This document shows, piece by piece, positions 9,547 through 49,780 of a DNA stretch of 64,000 nucleotides. The position numbers were made by a program, and so were the translations under genes. Positions within the stretch are counted from its first letter, which is position 1. Each line of letters starts with the position of its first letter. Below the pieces are notes generated by a model. That model worked only from the letters and a program-made list of their open reading frames with translations, was not told the origin of the DNA and made no database searches. Source of the DNA: Smithella sp. (GTDB lineage: Bacteria; Desulfobacterota; Syntrophia; Syntrophales; Smithellaceae); the NCBI GenBank assembly GCA_012510495.1, contig JAAZHX010000075.1, positions 1,064 to 65,063 of the forward strand. The letters are read 5' to 3'.

Positions 9547-10128
9547 ATGAATATCAATGAGTTTCGTACACCGGAAAATGATGTCCATGAGATATTTCTT
9601 CATCGCTGGTCCCCCCGGGCAATGTCCGGCGGAGACGTCGATGAGGCAACGCTCCTGACGCTTTTTGAGGCGGCGCGCTGGGCGCCTTCCTCGAACAATA
9701 ACCAGCCCTGGCGGTTTATTTACGCGCGCCGGAACACGCCGCGCTGGGAGGTTTTCTTTGAACTGCTGGCGGAGGGTAACCGGGTGTGGGTGAAAAACGC
9801 CGCCGTTCTGATTGCCGTGATATCTAAAACATCGTTTGATTCCGGAAAACCCGCGCGAACGCATTCCTATGATGCGGGCGCCGCGTGGGTCAGCCTGGCC
9901 CTGCAGGGGTCGCTGAAAAATCTGGTGGTTCACGGCATGCAGGGATTTGACTACGACAAAGCCAGAGAAGCGCTGCAAGTGCCCGATGGCTACACGGTGG
10001 AGGCGATGATTGCCGTCGGCCAACCCGGGAAGAAAGAGGACCTTCCTGATTATCTTCAGGCGCGGGAGTTTCCTTCGCCGCGAAAAAAACTGGATGAAAT
10101 CGTGATGCAAGAGGTTTTTAAAAAGTAG
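9547..10128 (+). CDS. Nitroreductase family protein
   Basis: RWSPRA, AARWAPSSNNNQPWRF, HGMQGFD. Confidence 0.93.
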   Translation: MNINEFRTPENDVHEIFLHRWSPRAMSGGDVDEATLLTLFEAARWAPSSNNNQPWRFIYARRNTPRWEVFFELLAEGNRVWVKNAAVLIAVISKTSFDSGKPARTHSYDAGAAWVSLALQGSLKNLVVHGMQGFDYDKAREALQVPDGYTVEAMIAVGQPGKKEDLPDYLQAREFPSPRKKLDEIVMQEVFKK

Positions 10129-10147
10129 CGGCACAGATAGGGGCATC

Positions 10148-10464
10148 ATGAAAGAAACAGGGGGAATTTTACTGATTGTATGGGTTTTGCTGTGGTTTTC
10201 GTCTGTGTCGGATTCGCGGCCAATGAAACCGGCAGGGACGGCCGGTTTGTCGCCTATGACGACGGGACTGTCTTGGATACCGGCGCCGGCCTGATGCGGG
10301 CGGATAAAGACAACGGAGCCGATCTTCACTGGGCCGCCGCCAAGTCTTTCTGTGAAAGTTTTAACGCGGGCGGTTACACGGTGCCGACGAAGAACGAACC
10401 GGCGGGATTGTACGACGGCTCGCGCCGCGACGTCCGCGTTCTTCCGGTGCGTTCCCGCCGGTAG
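10148..10464 (+). pseudogene. Degraded DUF1566 (Lcl domain) secreted protein
   Basis: RFVAYDDGTVLDTGAGLM, W..A...C; signal-peptide region frameshifted, WRLP motif degraded, truncated. Confidence 0.65.
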
Positions 10465-10479
10465 CGCGTCAAAACAACA

Positions 10480-11325
10480 TCAGAAATGGACCACCGCTTT
10501 CAGGGGGACGGGCGGGTAGATCTGTCCGTGCACGGGAGGCATGGAATTATAGACCCAGTCGATTTCCAGCGTTCCCAGCCGGATGCCCCGGCGGCGGGTA
10601 TAGCCCTGGAATACTCCTCGGACCAGAACATCTTCCATTTGCATTGTCAGCCCGAAGATCGCCATCGTTTTCCCCGCTTCCAGCCGCTTCAGTTCCTGAC
10701 CGAACGCGCCGGGATGAAAAGCCAGACGGTTTTCATCGCAGGCCTGGCATTGGATGACGGGGATGACAACCGGATATTCATCGTCGTCAATGAACGATAA
10801 AAATTTAAGAGAATCCAGGCGGTCGAACAGGTTTTTCCCGAATGGCGAAAGCGCCTTCGCTCCGGCGTTTTGCGCGGCGGCACCTTTCGCGATTCTGGTC
10901 AGAATCGCCGACGCCGCGATGGAGGCCAGCGGCAGCGGCGCTCCTTCCGTTGTTTCCTTCAGCTCCAGATAGTGGACCGTGTTGATTCCGAAATACGTAT
11001 TGTAGCGGAACATCGGTTGTTGATTGTATATTTCGTATTCCGGTCCTTCTTTTTTCAAATGGGTCCAGAGGGCTTTCCCTCGCCAGACTTTTTTATCCAG
11101 CGTCAGAATGGCAAAGCCGGTTTTTCGGTTCTGCTGCAGATAGTTTTTGCTCACCCCTTTGCAGAACTCGCCGATGATCATCTGCGTCGGTGTGGAGGCC
11201 ATGACCGAGGTCAGAAGCGACAGGTGCGGCAGGCCGTCAGACGTCACGGTCGCGATGATGCCGACTTTCTCCGACGGCGCGAAGGCCGTCATGTCCGATT
11301 CGGAAAAACGATTTTTGATGGTCAT
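10480..11325 (-). CDS. Pyridoxamine-5'-phosphate-oxidase-like (split barrel) two-domain protein
   Basis: IIATVTSDGLPH and LSFIDDDEYP repeated split-barrel starts; last gene of the GRE operon. Confidence 0.65.
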   Translation of the reverse strand: MTIKNRFSESDMTAFAPSEKVGIIATVTSDGLPHLSLLTSVMASTPTQMIIGEFCKGVSKNYLQQNRKTGFAILTLDKKVWRGKALWTHLKKEGPEYEIYNQQPMFRYNTYFGINTVHYLELKETTEGAPLPLASIAASAILTRIAKGAAAQNAGAKALSPFGKNLFDRLDSLKFLSFIDDDEYPVVIPVIQCQACDENRLAFHPGAFGQELKRLEAGKTMAIFGLTMQMEDVLVRGVFQGYTRRRGIRLGTLEIDWVYNSMPPVHGQIYPPVPLKAVVHF

Positions 11326-11349
11326 GCGCTTTTTCCTTTCCCTTAGAAA

Positions 11350-12378
11350 TCAGCCGACGCAGGCCGGATGGCGTTTGTTCAGTTTCTCCGGCGGTTTTTT
11401 GGACTCCGCGCCTTTCGCCAGTCTTGTCGCTCCGCTCCAGCAGACGTTCGTCTCCGGTGCCGCGTCTTTCGCGACGTTTGTCAGATTTTCCATGAGCGAC
11501 TTTTCCACGGGTTGTGCCTCGGCAAATGCCCAGTTGAGTCCCAGCCGTTTGTATTTGTCCCGGCACAAATGGTTGAAAGCGCACAGCTCCCAGCGGTCAA
11601 CCGCTCCCTCCAGATTTTCGCGGATGAACCGGCCGATGCCCGTGATGTTTCCGGGGGTGTCGGTTGCGCCCGGGATAACGGGGGTTCTGATCCACAGCGT
11701 TTTCGGATATGGGTGGGTTTTTTTGAAGCGCGCTGCGAAGACGGCGTTGTCCAGAATTTTCGCGTTGTCCGCTCCCGTGAATCTTTTGTGTTTTTCCGGA
11801 TCGATTTCCTTGAGATCATACAGGAGGACATCGACATACGGAAAAAGGACGGCCAGTGTTTTTTGAGGCGCCTGCCCGCAGGTGTCCAGGGCCGTTGAAA
11901 TGCCATTGGCTCTCAGCTCTTTCAGAAGGGGCAGACAGAATTCATGCTGCAGAGCCGCCTCTCCGCCGGACAGCGTCACGCCGCCGCCGGACTCGTCGAA
12001 GTAAACACGATCCTTGACCAGTTCACGGACAAGATCCGGCACATTCCATTTTTTGCCCAGAAGCTCCATGGCGGTTGTGGGGCATTCTTCCGTGCACAGG
12101 CCGCAGCCGGTGCAGAGCCGCCGGTTGATGACGATGCCGTCGGGCGTCTTCTCCAGTGCTTTTTCCGGGCAGGTTTCCACGCAGAGGCCGCATCCGATGC
12201 AGCTTGCTTTGAGCCACTGAATCTGGGGCTTTGGGCTGATGCTTTCGGGATTGTGGCACCACAGGCAGCCGAGCGGGCACCCCTTGAAAAAAACGCTCGT
12301 GCGGATGCCGGGTCCATCCTCCGTGGACATGCGGAGAATTTGCAGAATACGGCCCTGTTTTGCTTCGACGCGCTTCAT
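11350..12378 (-). CDS. Glycyl-radical enzyme activase with 2x[4Fe-4S] insertion
   Basis: DGPGIRT.VFFKGCPLGCLWCHNPES; two CxxCxxCxxxCP; GGVTLSGGE. Confidence 0.96.
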   Translation of the reverse strand: MKRVEAKQGRILQILRMSTEDGPGIRTSVFFKGCPLGCLWCHNPESISPKPQIQWLKASCIGCGLCVETCPEKALEKTPDGIVINRRLCTGCGLCTEECPTTAMELLGKKWNVPDLVRELVKDRVYFDESGGGVTLSGGEAALQHEFCLPLLKELRANGISTALDTCGQAPQKTLAVLFPYVDVLLYDLKEIDPEKHKRFTGADNAKILDNAVFAARFKKTHPYPKTLWIRTPVIPGATDTPGNITGIGRFIRENLEGAVDRWELCAFNHLCRDKYKRLGLNWAFAEAQPVEKSLMENLTNVAKDAAPETNVCWSGATRLAKGAESKKPPEKLNKRHPACVG

Positions 12379-12390
12379 CGCTTGTCTGCC

Positions 12391-14901
12391 TTAAAATTGC
12401 TGGTGACTGACCCGTTCAATGACCTCATTTTGCAGCTCTCTTCCCACCGTCGTGAAATAGGCGTTGTAGCCAGTGATTCGCACCAGGAGATGACGGTAGT
12501 TTTCGGGATGGTCCTGCGCGTCTTTCAGCATGTCGGAATCCAGCATGTTGATCTGCAGTGCGGTCCCGCCGTTTCTGGCATAGCCTTTCAGATACGCCTT
12601 GAATTTATCCTTGTGGACCGGATCCCGGAGAATCGACGGATTGAACGTAATAGTGTGGCTGGCGCCGTTCGGCAGGAGGTTCAGATAGTCCAGCCAATCA
12701 CCCCGTCCGTCCTGCGCTTTTCCGCCCAGCGCCTTTCCGACCGAATTGGCGTTGGCGGTTGGCCCTTTGGTGTCCGCTCCGTTGGAAGGGCAGATGGCGT
12801 TGGAAAGGAACTGGCCCTTGGTTCGTCCGTCGGCGCTTGCCGCCATAATGTAGCCGTCGCCCGCCCAGTAGTTCCAGCTGAGCATTCCCGGGCGATACCT
12901 GCGCCCGGTGGAGACGGTCCGGTGCCGCCACGTTTCGTCACACCAGAGCCGCATGACGCGCAAGGCGAGCGCGTCCGCTTCGTCGTCGTCGCGGCCGTAC
13001 TTGGGGGCGCGGTTTTTGGCCATGGCCTGGAGCACTTCGTGCCCCTCCCAGTTGGCCCGAAGCGCTTCCGCCAGTTCGGGCAGCGTACAGACTTTTTTAT
13101 CGAAGACCAGATGCTTGATGGCGAGGAGCGAGTCCACGGTGGTCGCGTAGGTTACGGCTTCGAGCGTGGTAAAGCTGATTTCGGCGCCGCCCTGCGTGAC
13201 ATCCAGACCCTTTTCGGCGCAGCCTGCGACCATGCAGGAAAGATAAGGTGTGGGGAAAAAGCGGGCGCGGATGGATTCGGACGTTTCGTACAGCTCGACA
13301 CATTTTCGAATGATATACCGCGTCTGGACAGCGTACGCTTCCCAGAACTTGTCCCAGGTTTTCAAAGACGCGGCGTCCGGCGTTTTGGGGCCGTTCTGCC
13401 GGATAGCTTCCGTTTTTCCGGTCATGGGGTCATAAAAGGGCAGGAGATCTTTTCCGCCCGTGAGCGCCAGCTCGACGGCTTTGAGCAAATTGAGGTTGTT
13501 GTCCACGGTTCCGGAGCGGTCATTTCCGACCATGGTGTTCTCCAGACACCCGACGGGCGCATATTCGTGGATATTGCCCTCGTGGATCAGGTGCGCCAGC
13601 CCCGCTTTTTTGGCTTCCAGCATCATGCCGGCCATGGAACGTTCGTCGAAATTCAGCAAAAAAGGCGCGCCCTGGCTGGATTCGATCATGTCCACGATTT
13701 TGTCGTACAACGCTTCGGGACTGTTTTGGTGCAGCCGCACGTTCGGCTTGGGCTCCAGGATGGGCGACATTTCATCGATCACTTCCAGCATGGCGTAGGT
13801 CAGATCATTGGTCATGTCGCGGCCGTTGGCCCCGAGGCCGGAAAGCGTGATCAGCTGGCCGAAACCGGCGGTAATACCCTGATTGCCGTTGCGGATCATG
13901 GCGTCGTATGCCGTGTTGGCGTGAACCCAGAAGCATTTCAGAATTTCCTTGGCCCAATCCCGCGGCATGCCGTTGCGTAGAGATCTTTCGTAGTACGGGT
14001 AAAGATACTGGTCCGCCCGGCCGAAGGAAACGCCCGCGCCCGGGTAGTTCTCGTCCGTCATGACCAGCATGTGGTTGAGCCAGAGCGCCTGAACGGCTTC
14101 CCAGAAATTCGTCGGGGGCTCCCACGGCACACGGGCCAGATTGGCGGTCATGGTCCGAAGCTCGGCTGCGCGGACGGCATCCGTCTCCTTTTGCGCCAGG
14201 TCTTCACACAGTAACCGGTATTTCGCGGCCAGGTCGCGCGCCATGGTGGAGGCGGTCATCATCGCCCGGAGCTGTGCGCCCTTCGGTCCGTTGCGTCCGG
14301 CATTGCCGAGGTCGTTGTATAGGGACATCAAATCCGCGTGGACGCCCTTCCAGCCTATTTGCAGCAGCCGTTCATGACCGGGGATCAGGTGGCCGCTTGT
14401 GGCGCCGGCGTTTCCGTATCCGTGATCATGGAACCATTTCATCTTCGCCCTTGCGCCGTTTTTGCCAAAGACGAGCTTTTGCCAGGCCCTGCTTTCCTCT
14501 TTTGTAAAACACATGGACGCTTGAATATTGAACCTCGCGCCGGCGAGCAAATCCCCCGGCAGGATTTCCTGGGGGACATGGTTTACGATGGTTTCCTTCA
14601 CAAACCAGGCCCGCCGCTCCACAAGAGGCCATTTCCAGAAATCCGGGTGCAGCGCCACGGGCCGTGCGGCCTGAAGATAGGAAGCGCCCAGCGTGTTGAT
14701 CAGGGTATAAGTTTCCGGTACGATATAAAACGTCAGTTCATTGTAGATCACGTCCCAGGGGGTTCCGGTCGTCCAGCAGGTGAATTCGTTGTTCCAGGGG
14801 CGCTCGGTTCCCCGGAAATAATAATCGCGAAGCCATTGGATGCGGCCGGATAGCGCTTTGGGCTCTTTCAGGCGGTATTCGGTTGCCAGTGCGGTTTTCA
14901 T
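12391..14901 (-). CDS. Glycyl radical enzyme (PFL-like family), function unknown
   Basis: SFGRADQYLYPYY, Cys loop PVGCLEN, Gly loop LLVRITGYNAYF; GGAGGT RBS before ATG at 14901. Confidence 0.95.
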   Translation of the reverse strand: MKTALATEYRLKEPKALSGRIQWLRDYYFRGTERPWNNEFTCWTTGTPWDVIYNELTFYIVPETYTLINTLGASYLQAARPVALHPDFWKWPLVERRAWFVKETIVNHVPQEILPGDLLAGARFNIQASMCFTKEESRAWQKLVFGKNGARAKMKWFHDHGYGNAGATSGHLIPGHERLLQIGWKGVHADLMSLYNDLGNAGRNGPKGAQLRAMMTASTMARDLAAKYRLLCEDLAQKETDAVRAAELRTMTANLARVPWEPPTNFWEAVQALWLNHMLVMTDENYPGAGVSFGRADQYLYPYYERSLRNGMPRDWAKEILKCFWVHANTAYDAMIRNGNQGITAGFGQLITLSGLGANGRDMTNDLTYAMLEVIDEMSPILEPKPNVRLHQNSPEALYDKIVDMIESSQGAPFLLNFDERSMAGMMLEAKKAGLAHLIHEGNIHEYAPVGCLENTMVGNDRSGTVDNNLNLLKAVELALTGGKDLLPFYDPMTGKTEAIRQNGPKTPDAASLKTWDKFWEAYAVQTRYIIRKCVELYETSESIRARFFPTPYLSCMVAGCAEKGLDVTQGGAEISFTTLEAVTYATTVDSLLAIKHLVFDKKVCTLPELAEALRANWEGHEVLQAMAKNRAPKYGRDDDEADALALRVMRLWCDETWRHRTVSTGRRYRPGMLSWNYWAGDGYIMAASADGRTKGQFLSNAICPSNGADTKGPTANANSVGKALGGKAQDGRGDWLDYLNLLPNGASHTITFNPSILRDPVHKDKFKAYLKGYARNGGTALQINMLDSDMLKDAQDHPENYRHLLVRITGYNAYFTTVGRELQNEVIERVSHQQF

Positions 14902-15242
14902 GGTTACCTCCCGGTAAAAAGATTTACACAAGCAGGTTGTCCCGCCGGGCCACTTCCCGAAAATGCTTTTCCCTGTGGTTGGAGAAAGGCCTTCATGACA
15001 AAGGACAGCTTTTGTTGCCCGGCAGGCGACATTACCCTTGCCCACGCCAAAATAAGTCCCTCGGCCTGTTTTTGTCAAGCCAAATCCTGGCCGGTGTCAG
15101 AATCTGCCCGGCGAATTTCCTTTCACAAAAGAAGGAATGCCTCTCCGGGTTGGATGTCGCGCTGCCCCGGGCGACTTGATATATTTGAAAGAACAGGCTA
15201 TATAAAAACCGGTTTTCACACTACAGCATTGAAGGCTGGATC

Positions 15243-16208
15243 ATGACGCAAAAAGAACCCGAAAAATGGCTGAAAATTCAAATATCGGCGCCCGTGGAAG
15301 AAATCGACGCCTTAAGCAATTTTCTGGAAGAAGCAGGGGCCCAGGGCGTTTATTCCGAGTCGCTGATGCCGCCCGGCGCCGATGATTTTCCGGAGGCCGC
15401 GGAAGTGGAAGTAATCAACGCGTTTTTCCCCGCGGATGCGCGCAGCGAAAAACGGATGAAGGCGGTTCAAAAATATCTCAAAAGCCTTGAAGAAATTTTT
15501 CCGGATGCCGCCGCGCCCGCGCTCTCTACCGAAACCATCACCGATCCCGACTGGGGAGAGCAGTGGAAAAAGTATTTCAAGCCGATCCGCGTGTGCAGGA
15601 ATATTGTCGTCAAGCCGACTTGGGAACGATACGCGCCGGACAGCCGCGACATTGTCGTGGAAATCGATCCGGGCATGGCCTTCGGAACCGGTCAGCACGC
15701 CTCCACGCGCATGTGTATGGAAGCGATTGAGGATATTATTCTGAAGGACCGTTCGATCGGCGAATGGAAGGTGCTCGACGCCGGATGCGGCACCGGCATT
15801 CTGGGCATTACCGCCGCCAAGCTGGGCGCGCAGGATGTGATTTGTGTGGACAATGATCCCCGGGCCACGGAAATCGCGGCGCAGAACGTGCTCATCAACG
15901 CGGTGGAAGACCGAATCAAAATCTGCAACAAAGACGCGGAACAAATGAGTCAGCCGCGCAATCTGATCGTTGCCAATTTGACGGCTAAATTACTGCTGAA
16001 GATGCGTCCGCATCTGGTGCGGCTGCTTCTGCCCGGCGGCTATCTGATTGTTTCAGGGATGATTGAGAACGACGTGCCCGCCATGGAAGAGCATTTTATG
16101 GTTGCGCCGCTGGTTCAGTATCGTCGGCTGACCGAGAAAGAATGGGTCTGCTTTGTGCTGCGCAAAGAAACAGCGGACCGTCCTGATCGCTTCCGGGCGG
16201 CAAAATAA
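15243..16208 (+). CDS. prmA: Ribosomal protein L11 methyltransferase
   Basis: DWGEQWKKYFKP, IDPGMAFGTGQHAST, LDAGCGTGIL. Confidence 0.96.
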   Translation: MTQKEPEKWLKIQISAPVEEIDALSNFLEEAGAQGVYSESLMPPGADDFPEAAEVEVINAFFPADARSEKRMKAVQKYLKSLEEIFPDAAAPALSTETITDPDWGEQWKKYFKPIRVCRNIVVKPTWERYAPDSRDIVVEIDPGMAFGTGQHASTRMCMEAIEDIILKDRSIGEWKVLDAGCGTGILGITAAKLGAQDVICVDNDPRATEIAAQNVLINAVEDRIKICNKDAEQMSQPRNLIVANLTAKLLLKMRPHLVRLLLPGGYLIVSGMIENDVPAMEEHFMVAPLVQYRRLTEKEWVCFVLRKETADRPDRFRAAK

Positions 16209-16233
16209 TCTTTTTACTGGAAAGTGCCCGACG

Positions 16234-17007
16234 TTGACGTTGCCCCGAATCTACAGTTCCGAGACGCTGCAAAACGATTCGCACTGCGCGCTTGGTGCGG
16301 ATCATCTCCGGTATCTGAAGACGGTGATGCGCCTGAAGCCGGGCGACGCGATTTTGGTTTTTGACGGTTATGGACACGAGTTTGAAGCGCGCATCGAAAA
16401 TTTCAGCGCGTCGGGAGTGACGGTCCGTCTCGGCGCGCCTGTTCCCCCTGTACGGAGAAAAATCCGGCTGACGCTGGCCCAGGGCATTCCAAAGGCGGGG
16501 AAAATGGACGGGATCGTCAGGACGGCCGCGGAACTGGGAACGGATGTCATCATTCCCGTGGCGGCGGCCCGTTCCGTACGAAGGCTTGAAGGGGAAAAAT
16601 CGTCGGCAAAAGTCGCCCGCTGGCAAAAAATCGCCCGGGAGGCGGCGCGCTGCACGCGGAGTTCCCGCGTGACCGTGGTGGAGCCGGTATTGTCTTTTGC
16701 CGATATGCTGAAACGTGCGGATTCCGGTGCGAGGAAACTGATTTTCTGGGAGGAAGAGAGCCGGCAAACGATTCGGGAGGTTTTATCCGATACCCGTTTT
16801 TCCGGCGCGACTCATTATTTTATTATTGTCGGACCGGAAGGCGGGCTTGCCCGGGAGGAAGTGGATCGGGCCGGGGAAAACGGCTTCATTTCCGTGAGCC
16901 TGGGCCGGCAGATTTTAAAAGTGGAAACAGCGGCGGCGGCGATTCTGTCTATCATCCAGTACGAGAAAGGCATATTCAGCGACGTCGCGAAAGGAATCGA
17001 GGTATGA
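16234..17007 (+). CDS. rsmE: 16S rRNA m3U1498 methyltransferase
   Basis: VMRLKPGD, AAELG, VGPEGG, SLGRQILKVETA; start codon approximate. Confidence 0.94.
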   Translation: MTLPRIYSSETLQNDSHCALGADHLRYLKTVMRLKPGDAILVFDGYGHEFEARIENFSASGVTVRLGAPVPPVRRKIRLTLAQGIPKAGKMDGIVRTAAELGTDVIIPVAAARSVRRLEGEKSSAKVARWQKIAREAARCTRSSRVTVVEPVLSFADMLKRADSGARKLIFWEEESRQTIREVLSDTRFSGATHYFIIVGPEGGLAREEVDRAGENGFISVSLGRQILKVETAAAAILSIIQYEKGIFSDVAKGIEV

Positions 17008-17696: not shown

Positions 17697-17772
17697 GGGT
17701 CGGTAGCTCAGTCGGTAGAGCATCGGACTGAAAATCCGAGTGTCGGCAGTTCAATTCTGCCCTGACCCACCA
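17697..17772 (+). tRNA. tRNA-Phe(GAA)
   Basis: GGGTCGGTAGCTCAGTCGGTAGAGCATCGGACT-GAA-AATCCGA...GTTCAATTCTGCCCTGACCCACCA; TTGACA at 17634. Confidence 0.97.
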
Positions 17773-17892: not shown

Positions 17893-20800
17893 TTAGCACC
17901 GTTCCAGTTCCTTGCGGATAGCTATTCCGATCGTTTCCATCACATAGGGTTTTTTGACATATGCGCCAGCTCCGAGCAGTTGCGCTTTCCGGACGCGGTC
18001 CGTTTCCGAGAAACCGCTTACCAGAATCGTCTTCTGCTTCGGGTGGATTTCAAGAATCCTCCGGTACGCCTCCATTCCGTCCATTCCCGGCGCCATAATC
18101 ATGTCCAGAATCAGAATGTCCGCCCGGTTCTCCTTCAGATGTTCCACAGCCTCCTCCCCGCTGGAAACACTGTGGACCCGATACCCCAGCTTGGTCAGCA
18201 TCCCGGAAGCGACATCCCGCTGCTCGGCAATGTCATCCACGACCAAAACCGTCTCTCCCCTGCCCATGTACCGTTCCACCGGCGTTTGCTGCGGCGGGGC
18301 GGCCGGTTCCTCCCGGGTGGCGGGGAAATACAGGGTAAACGTCGTTCCTTCTCCCATGCGGCTTGACACATCGATATAACCGTTGTGGTCCTTGACCGTT
18401 CCCCAGACAATCGTCAGCCCCAGGCCGGTCCCGCTTCTGCCCATGGTCTTCTTCGTGTAAAACGGCTCAAAGATCTTCTCCCGGTGCTCGGCGGAAATGC
18501 CGGCCCCCGTGTCGGATACGGACAAAACGGCGTAGTTCCCCTCCCGGACCTCATCGTAGCCCACAATGGCTTTGTCCAGATAGCGGTTCTCGGTCCGGAT
18601 GGTCACCTCGCCCTCGCCGCTGATGGCCTCCGCCGCGTTGGACACCAGATTCATCAGTGTCTTCTCCAGATGGACGGGAGAGCCTTTGATGTTGAGGAGG
18701 TTCGGGTTGCATTCCACCCGGAAGGAAACGCCCGGATGATAGTCACGAATGCTCTCGAAAGCCGGGGTTTTGGCAAAACCGGAAACTATGGCATTGACTT
18801 GAATAATTTCCTCCAGGATGACTCCCCGCCGGGCCAGGGTCAGCAGGTCCTGAATGATGGCTGCGCCTTTCTCCGTGGACTGGAGGATTTTTTCAACGTG
18901 TCTCCGGGATTTCTGCCCCTCGGGAATCTCCGCCAGCAAAAGCTCGGAATATCCGGAAAGGACGCCCAGAACGTTGTTCAGATCATGGGCGACGCCGCCC
19001 GCCAGTTGACCGAGGGCCTCCATCTTCTCGGCCCGGCGCAAACGCTCTTCCAGTCTCCGCTTCTCGGCCTCGGCCTGCTTCCGGTCGGTGATGTCCAGAA
19101 TCACGCCATTAAAGATCAATCCATCCTCAATCTCGATGGGTGCAGATATCCCCCGTAGATACATCTCTTTGCCAGTCGGTTTGATGTAGCGTCCTTCGAA
19201 ACTCCACCGGCTTACGGAGCGGATTGCTTCATTGATGGACTCGAAAAATCTTTCGCGGTCTTCCGGAGCGATGCAGGCGGCAAATTTTGGGAAAAATTGC
19301 TCTGGATCATGGGGCAGCCCCAATAAATCCAGGGCGTTTTCACTGACGTAGTTGAGCCCCATGTCTCCATTGTGGCGGGCAAAGAACTGAAAGACGCCGC
19401 CAGGCAGATTGCTGGCAATTCCCCTGAATTTCTCTTCGCTGAATCGCAGGTTTTCTTCCGCCTTCCTGCGCTCCGTGATGTCGGTCATAAAATTCAGCGT
19501 CGCGGGCTTTCCTTGCCAGTTGATCAGAATCGTATCCAACTGCGCCCACAACAAACATCCGTTTTTGCAAAGTACCCGAAAAGTGTAACTCCGGGGAATT
19601 TCTTCGCTGCGAAGGCGTCTGGTATGACGGTCAATGACCATAGCGCGGTCATCTGTATGAATGAAATCGACAAATGGCCTTGAAGCGATCTCCTCGCCGG
19701 AATAACCGGTGATCTGCGTTGTCATGGGATTGAGAAACACAAGCCTGCCGTTCTGGGCGACAAAAATCGCTTCACCGGCATTTTCAAAAAGGGTACGGTA
19801 TTTCTCCTCGCTCTCCTGAAGCGCACATTCCGCCTGTCTGCGGGCGGTAACATCGTCATAGACTGCCACGATCTCCCCGGAAGGTAATTTATAAACATGA
19901 TTTTCGCGCCAGCCCGAAATCCGGTTATCCTGATAAAATGAAATGTCGTGATCTTCGGAATTACCCGTCTTCCAGACCCGTTGAAAAACCGAAAAGAGTC
20001 CGAAATGGCTGACCGCCGGGAAGGCCTCCGTTACCCGTTTACCCAGGATTTCCTCCTTCTGAATCTTTTCCATCCGCTCAGCCGCGGCATTGAAATCCCG
20101 GATCACGAAATCCGTCCCGTCTTCAACGGCTTCATAGATCGCAACGCCGCTGCCCATGTGTTCAAAGAGCTTGTGGTAGCGGTTTTCGCTGGTTCGGAGC
20201 GCCTCCTTCGCCTGTTTGCGTTCGCTTATATCGCGGCAGACATTGACGAGGCCGAAAGGCGTTTGGTCTTCGTTTCGTAAGACATCGCCATTGACTTCAA
20301 AAGGAATTACTCTCCCGTCTTTCATGATAAGACGATATTCCTGCGGCCCCAGTCTGCGCTCCATCATCAGAAAAGTGTTTTGAATCGCCCTGCTTTGGTC
20401 TTCAGGGACAATGAAGTTAATCATATTCCGGCCAAGGATTTCCTCCCGAAGGTAGCCGCTGAACTGCAAAGTGTTGTCGTTCACAAAGAGGATCTTTCCG
20501 TCAAGATCCATGCGTATGATGATGTCCGGGATCGTGTTGATGAGGCGTGTATAAATTTCCTCGTTCTCCTGCAGGGCGTCCTGCGCGTTCTTTCTCAGCG
20601 TAATATCTTCCGCAACTCCTTCCAGCCACCCTTTATCCGGGATCAGTTTTGTGGATAAACGAATCCAAATGACCGAGCCGTCATTACGTCTGAATAGTGC
20701 TTCATAGTTGTCGCAGTAACCCTGCTGATTGATGATGGCCAGCATTCTCTTTCGCGCTTCAGGATCTATATATCTTTCCGCGATGTTGAAGTGACTGGAC

Positions 20801-21060
20801 AAAAGCTCTTCCCGGTTTTTAAATCCTGCAAATCGGGCCATACTGTCATTCGCTTCTATCATGAGGCCCGTGCTGATTTCTGTTCGAAACAACCCCGTTT
20901 GGGAATTCATAAAAATATTTCTATAGGTCGCTTCAGCCGCTTTCAGTTTCTCCTCTGCCCGCTTGCGCTCCGACTCGGATTGCTCCAGCTGGGCAATCCG
21001 CTTTCTTAAGGAAGCCAGTTCGCCGATCAATGTCTGTTTGGTTTTGGCTTGATCTTTCAT
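17893..21060 (-). CDS. Multi-PAS hybrid histidine kinase with receiver domain
   Basis: About 5 PAS repeats, GGVAHDLNN H-box, NAAEA, DTGAG, EPFYTTK, GTGLGL, VVDD...LDMIM REC. Confidence 0.95.
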   Translation of the reverse strand: MKDQAKTKQTLIGELASLRKRIAQLEQSESERKRAEEKLKAAEATYRNIFMNSQTGLFRTEISTGLMIEANDSMARFAGFKNREELLSSHFNIAERYIDPEARKRMLAIINQQGYCDNYEALFRRNDGSVIWIRLSTKLIPDKGWLEGVAEDITLRKNAQDALQENEEIYTRLINTIPDIIIRMDLDGKILFVNDNTLQFSGYLREEILGRNMINFIVPEDQSRAIQNTFLMMERRLGPQEYRLIMKDGRVIPFEVNGDVLRNEDQTPFGLVNVCRDISERKQAKEALRTSENRYHKLFEHMGSGVAIYEAVEDGTDFVIRDFNAAAERMEKIQKEEILGKRVTEAFPAVSHFGLFSVFQRVWKTGNSEDHDISFYQDNRISGWRENHVYKLPSGEIVAVYDDVTARRQAECALQESEEKYRTLFENAGEAIFVAQNGRLVFLNPMTTQITGYSGEEIASRPFVDFIHTDDRAMVIDRHTRRLRSEEIPRSYTFRVLCKNGCLLWAQLDTILINWQGKPATLNFMTDITERRKAEENLRFSEEKFRGIASNLPGGVFQFFARHNGDMGLNYVSENALDLLGLPHDPEQFFPKFAACIAPEDRERFFESINEAIRSVSRWSFEGRYIKPTGKEMYLRGISAPIEIEDGLIFNGVILDITDRKQAEAEKRRLEERLRRAEKMEALGQLAGGVAHDLNNVLGVLSGYSELLLAEIPEGQKSRRHVEKILQSTEKGAAIIQDLLTLARRGVILEEIIQVNAIVSGFAKTPAFESIRDYHPGVSFRVECNPNLLNIKGSPVHLEKTLMNLVSNAAEAISGEGEVTIRTENRYLDKAIVGYDEVREGNYAVLSVSDTGAGISAEHREKIFEPFYTKKTMGRSGTGLGLTIVWGTVKDHNGYIDVSSRMGEGTTFTLYFPATREEPAAPPQQTPVERYMGRGETVLVVDDIAEQRDVASGMLTKLGYRVHSVSSGEEAVEHLKENRADILILDMIMAPGMDGMEAYRRILEIHPKQKTILVSGFSETDRVRKAQLLGAGAYVKKPYVMETIGIAIRKELERC

Positions 21061-24137: not shown

Positions 24138-24331
24138 GGTGCTTCTCCTTCTTCAAATTTCCTTTGCGGCAGTACCGGGAACGGATTGCCCGCAAGGGAC
24201 TCTTTTAAACCGGCGCTATATTACAGTTTTGATGAAACGTTGCAAGGAAAAATCATTGGCCGACAAGACTGTCTTGACAAACGGACCGTCGTGTCTGTAT
24301 GTTGACAAAAAATAAATTCGAGGATCACACT

Positions 24332-25264
24332 ATGTCATTTGTCAGACCGGATATTATTCGACCCCCCAGCGAGCATGCCAGCTATTATCTGCCCCTGACG
24401 TCGGGGTGTTCCAACAATTCCTGCACCTTTTGCGCGTTTTCCTTCACCCATCTCGGCATTCGCGACCTCGACGACGTGAAACGTGAAATCGACGCTATGG
24501 CTCTGTACGCAAACAGCCGCATGTGGACGGCGGGCCAGCCGGACATCGTCTATGCCATCCTCCGCCAGTGGGATAGGGAGCGGGTGTTTCTCCAGGACGG
24601 CGACGCCCTGGTTTATCCGTATCCACTGCTGATGGAGGTGCTGCAATATCTCAACGGAAAATTCCCCGCCCTGGAGCGCATTGCCAGCTACGCTACGCCG
24701 CAGGACATTTTACGGCGAAGCGTTCAGGAGCTGCGGGCGCTCAGGGAGCAGAAGCTCGGCATTCTTTATATGGGCGTGGAAAGCGGTGACGACGACGTCC
24801 TGAAGAAGATCCGGAAAAACGCCAGCCACGACCAGATGGTGGAGGCCGCCAAAAAAGTGAAGGCCTCCGGCATTCTCCTGTCCGTCACCGTGATTCTCGG
24901 ACTGGGCGGCGTCGCGGGAAGCGGGAAGCACGCGCTGGAAACGGCGAGAATTCTGACGGAGATGGACCCGGATTACGCCGGCGCCCTGACGTTGACGCTG
25001 ATTCCCGAAACGGAGCTTTACAAGGAGTGGGAGAGCGGCGCCTTCGAAATGATCACGCCGTTTGATTCGCTCAGGGAATTGAAAACGATGGTGGAACATT
25101 CAACCTTTTCCAACTGCTTTTTCAGCTCCATGCACGCTTCCAATTATTTCTCCATCCGCGGCTCGATGCCGAAGGATAAAGGCAAAGTCCTCCGGCAGCT
25201 TCAGGCGCTGCTGTCCCGGAAGGATCCCAATATGCTGCGCCCGGAATTTATGCGGGGACTGTAA
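24332..25264 (+). CDS. Radical SAM protein
   Basis: RPPSE, GCSNNSCTFC, GVESG, HASNY. Confidence 0.9.
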   Translation: MSFVRPDIIRPPSEHASYYLPLTSGCSNNSCTFCAFSFTHLGIRDLDDVKREIDAMALYANSRMWTAGQPDIVYAILRQWDRERVFLQDGDALVYPYPLLMEVLQYLNGKFPALERIASYATPQDILRRSVQELRALREQKLGILYMGVESGDDDVLKKIRKNASHDQMVEAAKKVKASGILLSVTVILGLGGVAGSGKHALETARILTEMDPDYAGALTLTLIPETELYKEWESGAFEMITPFDSLRELKTMVEHSTFSNCFFSSMHASNYFSIRGSMPKDKGKVLRQLQALLSRKDPNMLRPEFMRGL

Positions 25265-47605: not shown

Positions 47606-47812
47606 ATGCAATCAGTAACCGTATCACCAAAATATCAAATCGTTATACCCAAAACCGTCAGGGAGTCTTTGCAGCTTTATCCAGGCCAAAAAATGCAGAT
47701 TGTTGAATATGCCGGTCATATTGAACTGATACCGGAACGCGATATCAAGGAACTGCGTGGATTTCTCAAGGGTATCAATACTGAATTCAAACGAGAGGAA
47801 GACAGAGTATGA
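47606..47812 (+). CDS. vapB: AbrB/MazE-type antitoxin
   Basis: VSPKYQIVIPK.VRE.L...PGQ; overlaps the toxin start. Confidence 0.92.
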   Translation: MQSVTVSPKYQIVIPKTVRESLQLYPGQKMQIVEYAGHIELIPERDIKELRGFLKGINTEFKREEDRV

Positions 47813-48183
47813 ACATTGTAGATTCGTCCGGCTGGCTTGCATATTTTGCCGACGAGCCAAATGCCAAGTATTTTTTGCCGCCACTCAGTGATTCAGATTT
47901 ACTTGTTGTCCCATCGGTCACTATTTACGAAGTCTTTAAAGTCATCCTGAGGGAATCCAGTGACAATGAAGCATTACAGGCGGTTGTTGCCATGCAAAGA
48001 GGAAAGGTTGTGGACCTGAGCGCGCCATTGGCAATCGCAGCTTCAAGGCTGAGCCTGGAGCATCAACTTCCCATGGCAGACAGTATCATTCTTGCCACAG
48101 CACAAGAATTCAAAGCCGTTATATGGACGCAAAATTCAGACTTTAAAAACATAAGCAAGGTGAAGTATTTTCCTAAAAAATAA
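47809..48183 (+). CDS. vapC: PIN-domain toxin
   Basis: NIVDSSGWLAY, YEV, LPMADSIILATA. Confidence 0.94.
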   Translation: MNIVDSSGWLAYFADEPNAKYFLPPLSDSDLLVVPSVTIYEVFKVILRESSDNEALQAVVAMQRGKVVDLSAPLAIAASRLSLEHQLPMADSIILATAQEFKAVIWTQNSDFKNISKVKYFPKK

Positions 48184-48184
48184 A

Positions 48185-48220
48185 GCCCAACAGATCAATA
48201 CAGTCGATCGCTTCGCTCCG
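48185..48220 (+). other. Left half of an integron attC-like site
   Basis: RYYYAAC core GCCCAAC right after the vapC stop, then CAATACAGTCGATCGCTTCGCTCCG; right arm replaced by AT-rich DNA. Confidence 0.6.
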
Positions 48221-48350
48221 TTTCAGATTTTCCTCCGGTTTCGGGAGATTTTTCTTTTTTTAAAATGATGAATAAAAAAATCATTGCAACTAAGAGAATA
48301 CCCATTATAACAAAAACACTTATTTGGGCCTTTTTATTTGAAAAAATCAC
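48195..48350 (-). pseudogene. Truncated archaeal-type class III signal peptide (prepilin-like) protein
   Basis: GTG-start MIFSNKKAQISVFVIMGILLVAMIFLFIILKKEK, then reads through the junction into attC and stops. Confidence 0.7.
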
Positions 48351-48481
48351 TTCCTCTCCTTTAGCAATTTAATTGCCTCTTCAATAACGTGAGATTTATT
48401 TCTGTATTTGCCTTTTTTTAAGAACTCTTCAATAATTTTTTCCGTTTCTTTATCAATTGTTGCCGATATTCTTGTCTTCAT
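48347..48481 (-). CDS. 44-aa ribbon-helix-helix DNA-binding protein (archaeal-like), below the ORF-track cutoff
   Basis: MKTRISATIDKETEKIIEEFLKKGKYRNKSHVIEEAIKLLKERK; GAGGTGA SD; GTGA overlap with the next gene. Confidence 0.8.
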   Translation of the reverse strand: MKTRISATIDKETEKIIEEFLKKGKYRNKSHVIEEAIKLLKERK

Positions 48482-48515
48482 CAATTCACCTCTATTTTAA
48501 AGTAACATTAAATAA

Positions 48516-48618
48516 TACTAAATACTACAAAATATTTAAAATAAGATAAAATATACTTAATCTTATTTAATATACTAAATACTACTTAGTAATAAGGGTA
48601 TTTAAAAGTTTTTGTTCG
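48516..48618 (-). promoter_or_regulatory. Archaeal-type BRE/TATA promoter with 13-bp direct repeats
   Basis: Minus strand CGAACAAAAACTTTTAAATAC; second TTTAAATA near 48533-48540; TACTAAATACTAC at 48516 and 48573. Confidence 0.6.
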
Positions 48619-48655
48619 GTATTAAAATTATAAAATTAAGAAAAATACAAAACGT

Positions 48656-49369
48656 TTATCCGTCTTTCCAGTGAAGAATTAGTCCCCTTTTCTTTTGATA
48701 GAGCTCAAGTCTAGCAATGTTTTCATTTTTGTGCGCTTCGTTTATAAAATTTCTAGTGGTAGCAATAGATCCTACAAAATTGTCTCTTGAATAAATTCTT
48801 TTTGTAGGATTAATTCCTTTTTTATATGAGTATATAAATGAATCACCAAATTTAAAATTTTCTATTATTGGTTTTATTTCTTTAATTCTTTCTTTAGCAT
48901 TTTCCTCATTTTCAAGTTCTGTAAATTCTACAAAAAAAAAATAATTAGGGAAATTTGTTTTTCCGGTGTATTCTGCATTCATAAGCCTTTTCCAAGAATG
49001 CTCTTTTTTTAATAAACTTCCATCACTCTTTACGTTATTTAAAAACATAGGGTTTGCTTGCCTTTTAAGTTTCATATAGTGCCTGTCTTCTGGCCAAGTA
49101 AGTCTCATTCCATAGAGCTCTTCTCCTGATAGAAGGAAATCTTCTATTTTTGTAATTGGAATTGGTCCAGAATCGTATTGTTTATGAGAGTTTACATCAA
49201 AATCTTTTGTAACGTTTTCGTGAGCTACACGTACATAACACCCCCCCAAACTTCCAAGTCCAGCAAGGGCTAATCCAGCAATTCCAGCTTTTTTTATAAA
49301 ATCTCTTCTTCCAATACCCTCTGATTTTTCTTCCAAATCATAAACGCTCTTTATTAAATCATTTTTCAT
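48656..49369 (-). CDS. Hypothetical Tat-type lipoprotein-like protein, very AT-rich
   Basis: GRRDFIKKAGIAGLALAGLGSLGGC twin-arginine signal ending in Cys; foreign codon usage. Confidence 0.7.
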   Translation of the reverse strand: MKNDLIKSVYDLEEKSEGIGRRDFIKKAGIAGLALAGLGSLGGCYVRVAHENVTKDFDVNSHKQYDSGPIPITKIEDFLLSGEELYGMRLTWPEDRHYMKLKRQANPMFLNNVKSDGSLLKKEHSWKRLMNAEYTGKTNFPNYFFFVEFTELENEENAKERIKEIKPIIENFKFGDSFIYSYKKGINPTKRIYSRDNFVGSIATTRNFINEAHKNENIARLELYQKKRGLILHWKDG

Positions 49370-49384
49370 GGTTTTTGGGGTTCC

Positions 49385-49610
49385 TTTCTTGAACTTTGCT
49401 CTAATTCTTCTGTTTATATGGAAAGTATGCCAACCGCTCCTGCTGGGTTTGTCAATACCGCTCCTATTGCTGCACCAGTTATTCCGAAGAATGTTTCTCT
49501 AGGCTCGGTAGGAGCGCCTTCAGCAGTATTTTTTTAGAAGTTTCTGAACCCTCTTATTAATCAGTTGAACCGGTTGTTGAAGAAATTGTTGCAATGTAAA
49601 TTGATAAGAA
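49385..49610 (-). pseudogene. Degenerate C-terminus of a DPANN-style secreted/anchored protein
   Basis: S/T/E-rich linker with stops and a frameshift, then PRETFFGITGAAIGAVLTNP and a basic tail RRIRAKFKK. Confidence 0.5.
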
Positions 49611-49704
49611 CCTCTTTTTGCGGTTATGAGCATAGGCGGCGGTGAATTTTTTGTCAAGAAGATTATGGGCATACATATAATGACGATATTTTGCCGAATC
49701 ATGG

Positions 49705-49733
49705 TTGACAGACGAAACGTCTCTTCATATACT
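49705..49733 (+). promoter_or_regulatory. sigma70 promoter of the IMPCH-AICART operon
   Basis: TTGACA-17bp-TATACT. Confidence 0.75.
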
Positions 49734-49780
49734 CGCGCCACAAAACGACAATCCATAATTTGCAACAGGGAGAAAACTTC

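Follow-up and report, generated by a model that had tools for sequence, protein, structure and literature searches.

A clade of glycyl radical enzymes linked to a tandem split-barrel protein, a putative accessory subunit of a new type

A stretch of 64,000 nucleotides from Smithella sp. (contig JAAZHX010000075.1), hereafter the window, carries adjacent genes for a glycyl radical enzyme (GRE), its activase and a tandem split-barrel protein (SB). This arrangement raises the question of what a protein with a PNPOx-like fold contributes to a GRE system. The explanation we favor, at a probability of roughly 60%, is a heteromeric, eliminase-like GRE with its own activase, in which SB serves as an accessory subunit of a new type bound to the GRE.

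The cassette and its glycyl radical enzyme

All three genes are on the minus strand with intergenic gaps of 12 and 24 nt, in agreement with the tight co-orientation described in an initial annotation of this DNA. The cassette contains the following features.

12391..14901, minus strand: GRE, the catalytic glycyl radical enzyme of an uncharacterised clade, 836 aa (Pfam PFL-like and Gly_radical)
14392..14901, minus strand: GRE residues 1-170, clade-specific divergent N-terminal region and predicted SB docking site
14389..14391, minus strand: His171, aligned with the general-acid His of diol dehydratases
13537..13551, minus strand: GRE residues 451-455, Cys loop GCLEN with Cys452 and Glu454 (CxE motif)
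12466..12480, minus strand: GRE residues 808-812, glycyl radical loop RITGY with Gly811
11350..12378, minus strand: activase, GRE-activating radical SAM enzyme, 342 aa (TIGR02494, CX3CX2C)
12067..12222, minus strand: activase residues 53-104, ferredoxin-like insert with two CxxCxxCxxxC motifs (Fer4, Fer4_6, Fer4_7)
10480..11325, minus strand: SB, tandem split-barrel protein and predicted accessory subunit, 281 aa (model, Foldseek, profile)
10945..11325, minus strand: SB domain 1, residues 1-127; conserved are the motif FRYNxYFGI at 106-114 as well as T26, H34, K60, N101 and R107
10483..10848, minus strand: SB domain 2, residues 160-281; conserved motif VYNSMPP at 258-264
15049..15078, minus strand: weak promoter-like sequence TTGACA-18-TATTTT (10/12 matches), some 150 nt ahead of the GRE start

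The GRE begins at an ATG preceded by a GGGAGG ribosome-binding site. As annotated initially, it is an 836-aa protein with a single-Cys GCLEN loop and a RITGY sequence, and it combines the hallmarks of the superfamily: a PFL-like barrel (PF02901, 403 bits) and a glycyl radical domain (PF01228, 77 bits), the radical Gly and Cys loop, and a nearby activase. The activase, too, is as described, scoring 300 bits against TIGR02494 (cut-off 174) with its CX3CX2C motif at C34, C38 and C41 and two Fer4 motifs in the ferredoxin insert.

The GRE had been suspected to lie outside the characterised families, and our searches bear this out. The NCBIfam equivalogs gave 95-347 bits against cut-offs of 994-1150, in each case no more than roughly one third of the score required; the best was HypD (347 bits, cut-off 1100), with HpfG at 343 of 1000, HpsG at 338 of 1000 and CutC at 303 of 1050. 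The score against TIGR01774, the PFL2/glycerol dehydratase subfamily, was 393 bits, below the cut-off of 678, and the closest PDB relatives matched at E values of 4e-82 or weaker. Judged by these scores, the searches show the GRE to be a member of a clade apart from every characterised GRE family. Alignments to the Pfam and NCBIfam profiles start only near residue 167, in the GRE of this clade and of its sister clade alike; in GRE paralogues without SB they start at residues 14-22. Homologues at 73-93% identity carry only the names 'pyruvate formate lyase family protein' or 'hypothetical'. Separately, homologues are entered in some sources as 'trans-4-hydroxy-L-proline dehydratase' or as 'formate C-acetyltransferase'.

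The predicted GRE structure (pTM 0.86; pLDDT below 50 in the active-site loops at 336-348, 675-690, 707-712 and 809-823) has its best Foldseek matches in glycerol dehydratase (GD), CutC, HypD and propanediol dehydratase (PD), at TM 0.72-0.78. With GD and PD (1r8w, 5i2a/5i2g, 9rco; TM 0.72-0.77) the GRE has in common the fold, the CxE loop, the general-acid His, the RxxG[Y] loop and an activase with a ferredoxin insert. However, it is only 22-23% identical to them in structural alignment and falls under the TIGR01774 cut-off, the GD/PD family profile leaves its first 170 residues unaligned, and its pocket differs at Trp676 and Asp467/Asn469. Unlike GD and PD, it also has an obligate split-barrel partner and no microcompartment genes; consistent with the initial annotation on this point, a search of the genome (2.8 Mb, 332 contigs) for BMC shell genes (PF00936) gave no match.

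The active site is strongly conserved. We compared 53 orthologues that have a close SB (tier-1) with 11 sequences of a sister GRE clade at 43-52% identity (tier-2). Among 25 mapped active-site columns, all (near-)invariant, the majority residue is the same in both tiers, with conservative variation at positions 345, 351 and 809. His171, invariant in 53/53 tier-1 and 11/11 tier-2 sequences, is the counterpart, in alignment, of His166 in the propanediol dehydratase chain 5i2a and matches by register residue 164 of glycerol dehydratase 1r8w, and thus occupies the general-acid position of GD and PD. The Cys loop GCLEN, with its single Cys, is invariant in 64/64 clade sequences, as are R808, T810, G811 and Y812. 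Cys452-Leu-Glu454 aligns with the CxE of CutC and HypD, a feature of GRE eliminases and isomerases that is described, along with the roles of the catalytic residues, in a 2026 review of GREs, where GD His164 is the proton donor. The suggested 'new GRE chemistry' is not shown by these data: because His171, Cys452 and Glu454 are the residues of known dehydrating eliminases, the chemistry may be ordinary 1,2-elimination.

GRE and SB co-occur across two deep sub-clades

Alone, SB scores 20.8 bits against PNPOx_N (PF01243), below the gathering cut-off of 28.1, and 61 of 78 SB relatives match this profile at E<=0.01. A profile built from the 78 relatives matches HupZ over residues 19-99 and 2htd over residues 157-227, and its matches to split-barrel proteins range from E 1e-6 to 1e-3. 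The AlphaFold2 model (pLDDT 96.6) consists of two split barrels linked by a helix, and Foldseek retrieves 2htd, HupZ, FMN-binding proteins and F420 reductases (TMt 0.6-0.77). With both halves matching split-barrel proteins and two barrels in the model, the third protein is indeed a duplicated split barrel. An ESM Atlas search returned only PNPOx-labelled or unnamed clusters. Each half has the fold of HupZ/HutZ, the Desulfovibrio FMN-binding protein, 2htd and 3in6; whereas these proteins are homodimers of ~120-160 aa, SB is a fused pseudo-dimer, and its most conserved motifs (FRYNxYFGI and VYNSMPP) sit in a predicted protein-protein interface.

Relatives of SB occur on 225 contig stretches in a one-genome-per-species collection. 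Among 80 loci found with SB, the GRE is present in 69, the other 11 being interrupted by contig ends, and the activase is present in 76, with the remainder interrupted in the same way. In a sample of 401 genomes of the phylum, about 50 of which carry the GRE, the 26 genomes with a GRE of at least 68% identity are the same 26 that have an SB of at least 39%. The tier-2 GREs, which have the same active-site columns, are accompanied by a distant SB at 20-27% identity: it was detected at E<=1e-10 in 17 of 24 genomes with a tier-2 GRE and in 4 more by blastp of fetched loci, and both proteins are encoded in 12/12 fetched tier-2 loci. Between tiers, SB (20-27%) diverges much faster than the GRE (43-52%); the SB motifs have changed, as has the N-terminal region of the GRE, but the active site has not. 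The cassette was also found in MAGs of Spirochaetota, Leptospirales and Poribacteria. Together, these observations show a near-perfect two-way co-occurrence of GRE and SB in two deep sub-clades and several phyla. The third gene is thus kept beside GRE orthologues in related loci and in genomes of the phylum. Our results are the reverse of the two outcomes that the initial annotation had named as contradicting it, a GRE that clusters with a characterised enzyme and a third gene not conserved next to orthologues, because the GRE is outside the known families and SB is strictly conserved.

SB tracks the GRE and not the activase. In six genomes (G117, G045, G083, G297, G150 and G181) the GRE and SB are 70-280 nt apart with no activase between them, and in L086 and L087 the two genes are directly adjacent, so that this arrangement is seen in at least 8 genomes. 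In the source genome, the sole SB match is that of the cassette itself, and the fetched loci of its other two GREs are without SB. A search of longer proteins yielded one activase-SB fusion sequence (P0394, 617 aa) and no GRE-SB fusion.

A predicted GRE-SB complex and the role of SB

The position of SB was predicted with a complex model of SB and GRE residues 1-719, taken as a monomer without the glycyl radical domain. With this truncated GRE, the model reached ipSAE values of 0.79, 0.81 and 0.79, and the best of 3 controls reached 0.00; the runs share at least 68% of contacts and the partner has a pLDDT of at least 84. The mark used was attained by 116/157 solved complexes and by 2/215 mismatched pairs, counts that hold only roughly here because our own alignments were used. 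We know of no solved GRE-split-barrel complex, and it is therefore unlikely that the predictor reproduced a known structure. In the model, the GRE interface residues are mostly within 27-127, the SB interface includes residues 104-112 and 260-281, and SB is predicted to contact GRE loops 334-338 and 684 beside the active-site strands. Within SB, conservation is higher at the interface than elsewhere (0.523 vs 0.431; 108 of 10,000 permutations reach this value), and within the GRE it is not raised at the interface (0.673 vs 0.720 for the rest; reached by 9012 of 10,000 permutations). The predicted complex supports the accessory-protein role initially suggested for SB.

Accessory proteins bound at the surface of a catalytic alpha subunit are known, according to the 2026 review, from benzylsuccinate synthase (BSS; beta, gamma), 4-hydroxyphenylacetate decarboxylase (HPAD; gamma) and (1-methylalkyl)succinate synthase (MASS; beta, gamma, delta), and some of them cover the substrate channel or are in contact with the radical domain. 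The same review describes these small subunits as HiPIP-like [4Fe-4S] or rubredoxin-like iron-binding proteins, restricted to the X-succinate synthases and HPAD, with enigmatic roles. Like them, SB is co-encoded and is predicted on the GRE surface near the active-site strands. In contrast to these iron-binding subunits, the 281 residues of SB form a tandem split barrel and include neither a Cys cluster nor an iron-sulfur motif (none of its three Cys residues is invariant across the family), and the catalytic subunit here is eliminase-like. No HiPIP-like or rubredoxin-like small-subunit gene lies within the operon, where the gaps of 12 and 24 nt leave no room for one; the absence of BSS- or decarboxylase-type small subunits noted initially therefore stands inside the operon. 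The limonenylsuccinate synthase operon encodes LssP, a PNPOx-annotated protein without an assigned role that is described as co-encoded and co-expressed with a GRE (PMC12583861). By its description LssP resembles SB in being a PNPOx-annotated GRE neighbor, but its operon is of the X-succinate synthase type with many other genes. The initial statement that no characterised GRE has such a partner agrees with the 2026 review, which lists no split-barrel partner, and our literature searches found no split-barrel or FMN accessory subunit described for a GRE and, for Smithella and Hxd3, nothing on this GRE clade; a paper on a benzene cluster had no bearing on it.

One unlikely but credible alternative is that SB works independently within the same short pathway, as a flavoenzyme or redox carrier that would reduce, oxidise or tautomerise the GRE product without forming a stable complex with the GRE. 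GRE-eliminase gene clusters usually encode product-processing enzymes, and SB shares its fold with reductases that depend on FMN or F420, as well as with the Desulfovibrio FMN-binding protein. In addition, the conserved T26, H34, K60 and N101 are outside the predicted interface and may mark a site for a phosphate-bearing cofactor, and SB evolves faster than the GRE. Against this, the complex model separates clearly from its controls and buries the most conserved SB motifs, the clade-specific N-terminal region of the GRE coincides with the predicted docking site, and the neighborhood shows no recurring gene for a redox partner, NAD(P)H-binding or otherwise. A rather doubtful variant combines binding with redox chemistry: a flavin on SB at the active-site mouth would support a reaction that is not redox-neutral, for example a reductive dehydroxylation like that of class III ribonucleotide reductase, possibly via Cys704. 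This residue is conserved in the clade and stands, by alignment, where CutC, PFL2 and HypD have the Ser of the GISP motif. If true, PFL-like GREs would gain a new reaction class, and this would be the first GRE coupled to a flavin.

It is quite improbable that SB instead serves the activase, either as electron donor for the radical SAM cluster or by controlling installation of the glycyl radical. Small split-barrel FMN proteins are electron carriers in sulfate reducers, and the gene order GRE-activase-SB in 76/80 loci and the natural activase-SB fusion would fit such a role, as would the modulation of activation by BSS beta (2026 review). Yet at least 8 genomes have SB directly behind the GRE without an intervening activase, the fetched loci of the source genome's other two GREs lack SB, and the predicted interface is with the GRE. 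That the cassette is an ordinary known GRE (glycerol/propanediol dehydratase, HypD, CutC or a sulfonate lyase) with an unrelated neighbor is highly improbable: the fold, the catalytic His/Cys/Glu set and some homologue labels resemble known enzymes, but the equivalog scores are too low, GRE Gly288, His171 and Trp676 align with HypD Asp278, CutC Asp216 and CutC Ile700/HypD Thr645, respectively, which we take to be substrate-binding positions, and an unrelated neighbor is already contradicted by the retention of SB across phyla and two sub-clades.

Proposed mechanism, neighborhood and occurrence

For the favored heteromeric enzyme, we propose that SB docks via its FRYN and VYNSMPP motifs onto the clade-specific N-terminal region of the GRE and thereby may reach the two GRE loops beside the active-site strands. 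The activase would install a radical on Gly811, which would then move to Cys452, and the Cys452 thiyl radical would take a hydrogen from a hydroxyl-bearing carbon. Glu454 would deprotonate the hydroxyl, and His171 would protonate the neighboring leaving group. From the catalytic residues we infer that a small polar substrate would undergo either a 1,2-elimination or an isomerisation with ring opening, similar to the reactions of the glycerol and propanediol dehydratases. SB may work like BSS beta or gamma, keeping the GRE soluble and gating its radical domain or substrate channel. Its T26, H34, K60, N101 and R107 could form an anion-binding site, such that domain 1 may hold a phosphate-bearing cofactor such as FMN facing the GRE. 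This GRE clade would add the tandem split barrel as a different kind of partner, on an eliminase-like GRE. The subunit reading predicts that the GRE needs co-expression of SB for solubility or activity, a requirement that could explain failed reconstitutions and open a whole unannotated clade to biochemistry.

Clustering of open reading frames over the 80 loci yielded no recurrent transporter, dehydrogenase or other enzyme, and Pfam searches of 77 flanking reading frames from 20 diverse tier-1 loci and of 41 from tier-2 loci yielded no recurring pathway partner. ThiT with thiamin pyrophosphokinase was considered and rejected as lineage-specific to one family, as were MaoC-like, VOC, CoA ligase and enoyl-CoA hydratase proteins in another. 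The only recurring extra gene encodes a FadR-type GntR regulator (31/80 loci); its place before many copies hints at a carboxylate signal. Rfam searches of window positions 9000-17000 and of ten tier-2 loci revealed no riboswitch for the cassette, the only matches being tRNA-Glu and a single TPP riboswitch, which is that of ThiT. The promoter scan was at chance level (2 sites found vs 1.9 expected from shuffles), as was the terminator scan.

An RNA-library contig of 4,673 nt from a relative about 91% identical covers positions 10425-14936, and 99%-identical RNA-library pieces cover 14284-14493 and 14628-15015. These contigs are a weak hint that the cassette is transcribed, weak because DNA carry-over is possible in RNA libraries. 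The cassette is widespread in anoxic habitats. Near-identical DNA is present in anaerobic digester, wastewater and bioreactor metagenomes, and the substrate of the GRE may therefore matter for carbon flow there.

Architecture, family placement and putative chemistry of the glycyl radical enzyme

The reading best supported by our analysis, to which we assign a probability of about 0.6, is a heteromeric, eliminase-like glycyl radical enzyme (GRE) with a tandem split-barrel protein (SB) as its accessory subunit. The initial annotation had described the gene order and motifs of a GRE operon with a ferredoxin-bearing activase, a split-barrel protein and no microcompartment genes. The anatomy, motifs and profile scores, together with our finding no BMC shell gene across the 2.8-Mb genome, confirm this observation. 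The features are as follows:

14901..12391, minus strand: GRE, 836 aa, with its ATG behind GGGAGG; Pfam PFL-like 403 bits, Gly_radical 77 bits
12378..11350, minus strand: activase, 342 aa; TIGR02494 300 bits against a cut-off of 174; two ferredoxin motifs, residues 53-104
11325..10480, minus strand: SB, a split-barrel protein of 281 aa
GRE residues 451-455: Cys loop, GCLEN
GRE residues 808-812: glycyl loop, RITGY

All three genes of this cassette lie on the minus strand and are separated by gaps of 12 and 24 nt. The length of the GRE is that of its 836-aa homologues. The surrounding genes are unrelated to the cassette, with a divergent PrmA gene followed by RsmE-like and RDD genes upstream, and tRNA-Glu and a nitroreductase-like ORF downstream.

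Judged by its profile scores, the GRE is uncharacterised. It falls far below the cut-off of every NCBIfam equivalog (bits/cut-off: HypD 347/1100, HpfG 343/1000, HpsG 338/1000, CutC 303/1050, PflD-type 256/1109, indoleacetate decarboxylase 211/1100, HPAD 168/1150, PFL 95/994), and also misses the PFL2/glycerol dehydratase subfamily model (393 versus a cut-off of 678). Its best solved relatives are CutC, A. fulgidus PFL2 and HypD (E about 1e-80), and a structural model of the GRE (pLDDT 79.5, pTM 0.86) finds glycerol dehydratase (GD), CutC, HypD and propanediol dehydratase as best Foldseek matches, with TM scores of 0.72-0.78 at 22-25% identity. Because all Pfam and NCBIfam profiles align only from about residue 167, the N-terminal 170 residues of the GRE are divergent in sequence. 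Close homologues are numerous (73-93% identity, 836-838 aa) and carry only the names 'pyruvate formate lyase family protein' or 'hypothetical', or automatic labels. Among the characterised eliminases, isomerases and accessory subunits listed in the excerpted part of a 2026 superfamily review, none matches the GRE-SB system (PMC13450708).

The same genome encodes two further GREs on other contigs. One (contig C192, fetched locus L001:1096-3477, minus strand) is 793 aa long, scores 694 against the TIGR01774 cut-off of 678 with no equivalog, and is flanked by SDR and CoA-transferase-like genes. The other (contig C132, L002:1084-4104, minus strand) is 1006 aa long, has an N-terminal extension of about 210 aa, lies below all cut-offs and has its own activase upstream. 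Neither of these two fetched loci shows an SB gene.

The catalytic residues of the GRE resemble those of eliminases. In HMMER alignments, Cys452 and Glu454 match the CxE of CutC and HypD, and His171 is equivalent to His166 of propanediol dehydratase (chain 5i2a) and, by register, to residue 164 of glycerol dehydratase (1r8w). In GD, according to the same review, Glu435 deprotonates the substrate hydroxyl and His164 protonates the leaving hydroxyl (PMC13450708). At the substrate-binding positions, Asp216, Thr334, Leu698 and Ile700 of CutC correspond to His171, Pro287, Leu674 and Trp676 of the GRE, with Thr502 and Tyr506 corresponding to Thr465 and Asn469 at further positions, and Asp278 of HypD is replaced by Gly288. 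For the CutC and HypD positions, residue identities and substrate-binding roles are those given in the literature, and the numbering agrees with the printed alignments. The combination of eliminase-type catalytic residues and differing substrate-binding positions thus makes the protein look like a dehydrating or eliminating GRE with a pocket of its own. From these conserved residues we infer a chemistry in which a Cys452 thiyl radical would abstract hydrogen from the substrate, and elimination would follow, Glu454 acting as the base and His171 as the acid.

The split-barrel protein and its predicted complex with the GRE

SB belongs to a compact family of 346 representative clusters (E<=1e-3, 1.84 billion proteins searched), and among the matches listed nearly all full-length members are about 265-305 aa long. 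An AlphaFold2 model from an alignment of 78 members (pLDDT 96.6) shows one split barrel at residues 1-127 and a second at 160-281, connected by helix 133-150. Profile and fold searches with SB return HupZ, 2htd, 3in6, F420 reductases and the Desulfovibrio FMN-binding protein, every match covering a single half of SB. Conservation peaks in two motifs, FRYNxYFGI (106-114) and VYNSMPP (258-264), and extends to T26, P33, H34, K60, N101 and a number of Gly and Pro positions. None of the three cysteines is invariant across the family, so an iron-sulfur cluster in SB is unlikely.

The complex was modelled from GRE residues 1-719 (34-row alignment), from which the glycyl radical domain is absent, and full-length SB (the 78-member alignment). 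Three runs scored 0.79, 0.81 and 0.79, and none of three controls scored above 0.00; 68% or more of the contacts agreed between runs, and partner pLDDT was at least 84. In calibration 116 of 157 solved complexes pass the mark, as do 2 of 215 mismatched pairs, counts that are only rough here because we used our own alignments. The predicted interface comprises GRE residues 27-127, 334-338, 492-493 and 684 and SB residues 19, 55-57, 104-112, 160-165, 227-233 and 260-281, and thus would place both conserved SB motifs on the clade-specific N-terminal region of the GRE. In the model these motifs also contact loops flanking the strands that bear Phe347/Ile351 and Leu674/Trp676. A candidate ligand of SB, FMN or another cofactor, bound by the conserved T26, H34, K60, N101 and R107, which lie near the interface in sequence, would be close to the GRE. 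The SB interface is more conserved than the rest of SB (0.523 versus 0.431; reached by 108 of 10,000 permutations), and the GRE interface shows no conservation enrichment (0.673 versus 0.720 for the rest; 9012 of 10,000 permutations). GRE-SB binding is a prediction of a model in which the GRE is truncated, and any fit with the glycyl radical domain or the GRE dimer lies outside that model.

SB could instead be a free flavoenzyme acting in the pathway of the GRE, a reading that we consider a good deal less probable than an accessory subunit. According to the 2026 review, HPAD, BSS and MASS are the only GREs with known small subunits, and these are HiPIP-like or rubredoxin-like (PMC13450708); our full-text literature searches found no paper on a split-barrel or FMN accessory partner of GREs. 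A published account of the limonenylsuccinate synthase operon mentions LssP, a PNPOx-annotated protein with no assigned role (PMC12583861). An accessory split barrel would give this GRE a new type of partner, which is of interest to the field and directly testable.

Conservation of the cassette across genomes

A search with SB over one genome per species yielded 225 stretches encoding an SB relative, of which 80 loci were kept. By tblastn, a GRE is present in 69 and an activase in 76 of the 80, and the genes invariably run GRE-activase-SB on a single strand; in all 11 loci lacking a GRE match, the contig stops before the position of the GRE. Carriers include Smithellaceae, Syntrophaceae, many Desulfobacterales (among them MAGs assigned to Desulfosudis oleivorans, Desulfocicer vacuolatum and Desulfatitalea), Desulfomonilia, Spirochaetota, Leptospirales and one Poribacteria MAG. 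Among 401 evenly sampled genomes from the phylum, GRE orthologues (tier 1, 68-100% identity) occur in 26, and SB relatives of at least 39% identity occur in the identical 26. Both genes share a contig in 25 of these, the exception being a fragmented assembly. That an ordinary, known GRE has here acquired a neighbour by chance is very improbable.

SB follows the GRE. In six tier-1 genomes (G117, G045, G083, G297, G150 and G181) only 70-280 nt separate the two genes, which leaves no room for an activase gene between them. That SB is a factor serving the activase, and not the GRE, seems improbable, and a 617-aa fusion of an activase (radical SAM with Fer4 insert) to SB (P0394, 45% identity over 98% of SB) keeps a role at the activation step possible. 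This fusion is one sequence on one contig, and may be genuine or an assembly artefact.

Two relatives have a second, canonical-looking GRE adjoining the cassette (L090:8647-11091, minus strand; L083:6569-8938, plus strand). Both score about 565 bits against PF02901, aligned from residue 15-22, and a TetR regulator lies upstream in L090.

A sister clade of GREs (tier 2), about 800 aa long with 43-52% identity and matches that start at residue 15, is found in 24 further genomes of the 401. A distant SB (21-30% identity, E<=1e-10) is present in 17 of the 24, with the SB status of G091, G199 and G384 looked at to that threshold only. Both genes occur in all 12 fetched tier-2 loci: in two the SB match comes from the genome-sample search (masked in ORF calls), in one SB is split in two pieces, and in L086 and L087 SB comes immediately after the GRE. 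In genome G312 there is an SB fragment of 41 residues, with no GRE match at the threshold applied. Like its tier-1 counterpart, the tier-2 GRE falls below all NCBIfam cut-offs and has no profile alignment over its N-terminal region.

When 53 tier-1 and 11 tier-2 sequences are compared, the majority residue agrees at twenty-five mapped active-site columns, which show no or almost no variation: His171, Glu284, Tyr286, Pro287, Gly288, Gly290, Ser292, Phe347, Cys452 to Thr456, Thr465, Val466, Asp467, Asn469, Leu674 to Trp679 and Gly811. Ile351 varies conservatively, and Cys704 is kept in 10 of 11 tier-2 sequences. One substrate is probably common to both tiers. From one tier to the other, the N-terminal segments of the GRE and the motifs of SB differ and the active site stays the same, a pattern that would fit a co-evolving interface.

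In one family, upstream of the tier-2 GRE, a ThiT/YuaJ thiamine transporter and thiamin pyrophosphokinase are divergently encoded in L084 and L085 (in L094 only the kinase was identified), and a TPP riboswitch precedes ThiT in L084 (L084:9659-9753, plus strand). These thiamine genes probably reflect lineage synteny and not a functional link.

Regulation, expression and surroundings

One other neighbour alone recurs: in 31 of the 80 loci, the gene immediately upstream, on the same strand, encodes a protein of about 243 aa. This protein is a GntR regulator of the FadR subfamily, with the NanR, GlcC, FadR, LldR and PdhR models as its best matches, all below cut-off, and it hints at a carboxylate as substrate or signal. 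This regulator is absent from the window, and 21 further loci with more than 1 kb of upstream sequence have other genes in its place. Since the remaining flanking genes are unrelated from lineage to lineage, the cassette looks autonomous.

Metagenomes from anaerobic digesters, bioreactors, wastewater and manure contain near-identical DNA. An RNA-library contig of 4,673 nt from a relative about 91% identical spans the whole cassette (10425-14936), and RNA-library contigs at 99% identity cover the 5' end of the window's own GRE and its leader; these contigs hint weakly at tricistronic expression. The promoter scan, which performed at chance level, gave a promoter-like TTGACA-18-TATTTT at 15078-15049.

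The region of the cassette, PrmA, RsmE and RDD is flanked by tRNA-Glu(TTC) (9252-9327, minus strand) and tRNA-Phe(GAA) (17697-17772, plus strand). Coding assignment just 3' of SB is ambiguous, with overlapping ORFs on both strands: a 267-aa ORF without family (9526-10329, minus strand) overlaps a 193-aa ORF (9547-10128, plus strand) that has a partial nitroreductase match at residues 19-60 only, and a 94-aa ORF (10180-10464, plus strand) also lies downstream of SB. The window further encodes a LarA-like lactate racemase homologue (6784-8088, minus strand), a hybrid histidine kinase of 1055 aa that carries several PAS domains (17893-21060, minus strand) and another radical SAM protein (24299-25264, plus strand), none of which recurs near the cassette in other genomes. 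Finally, positions 48001-50000, between a QueG-like and an IMP cyclohydrolase-like gene, are low in G+C (0.358 versus about 0.55 elsewhere). Within this stretch, a 237-aa ORF with no Pfam family (48656-49369, minus strand) adjoins a PIN-domain gene (47809-48183, plus strand), and the stretch may be a small inserted element.
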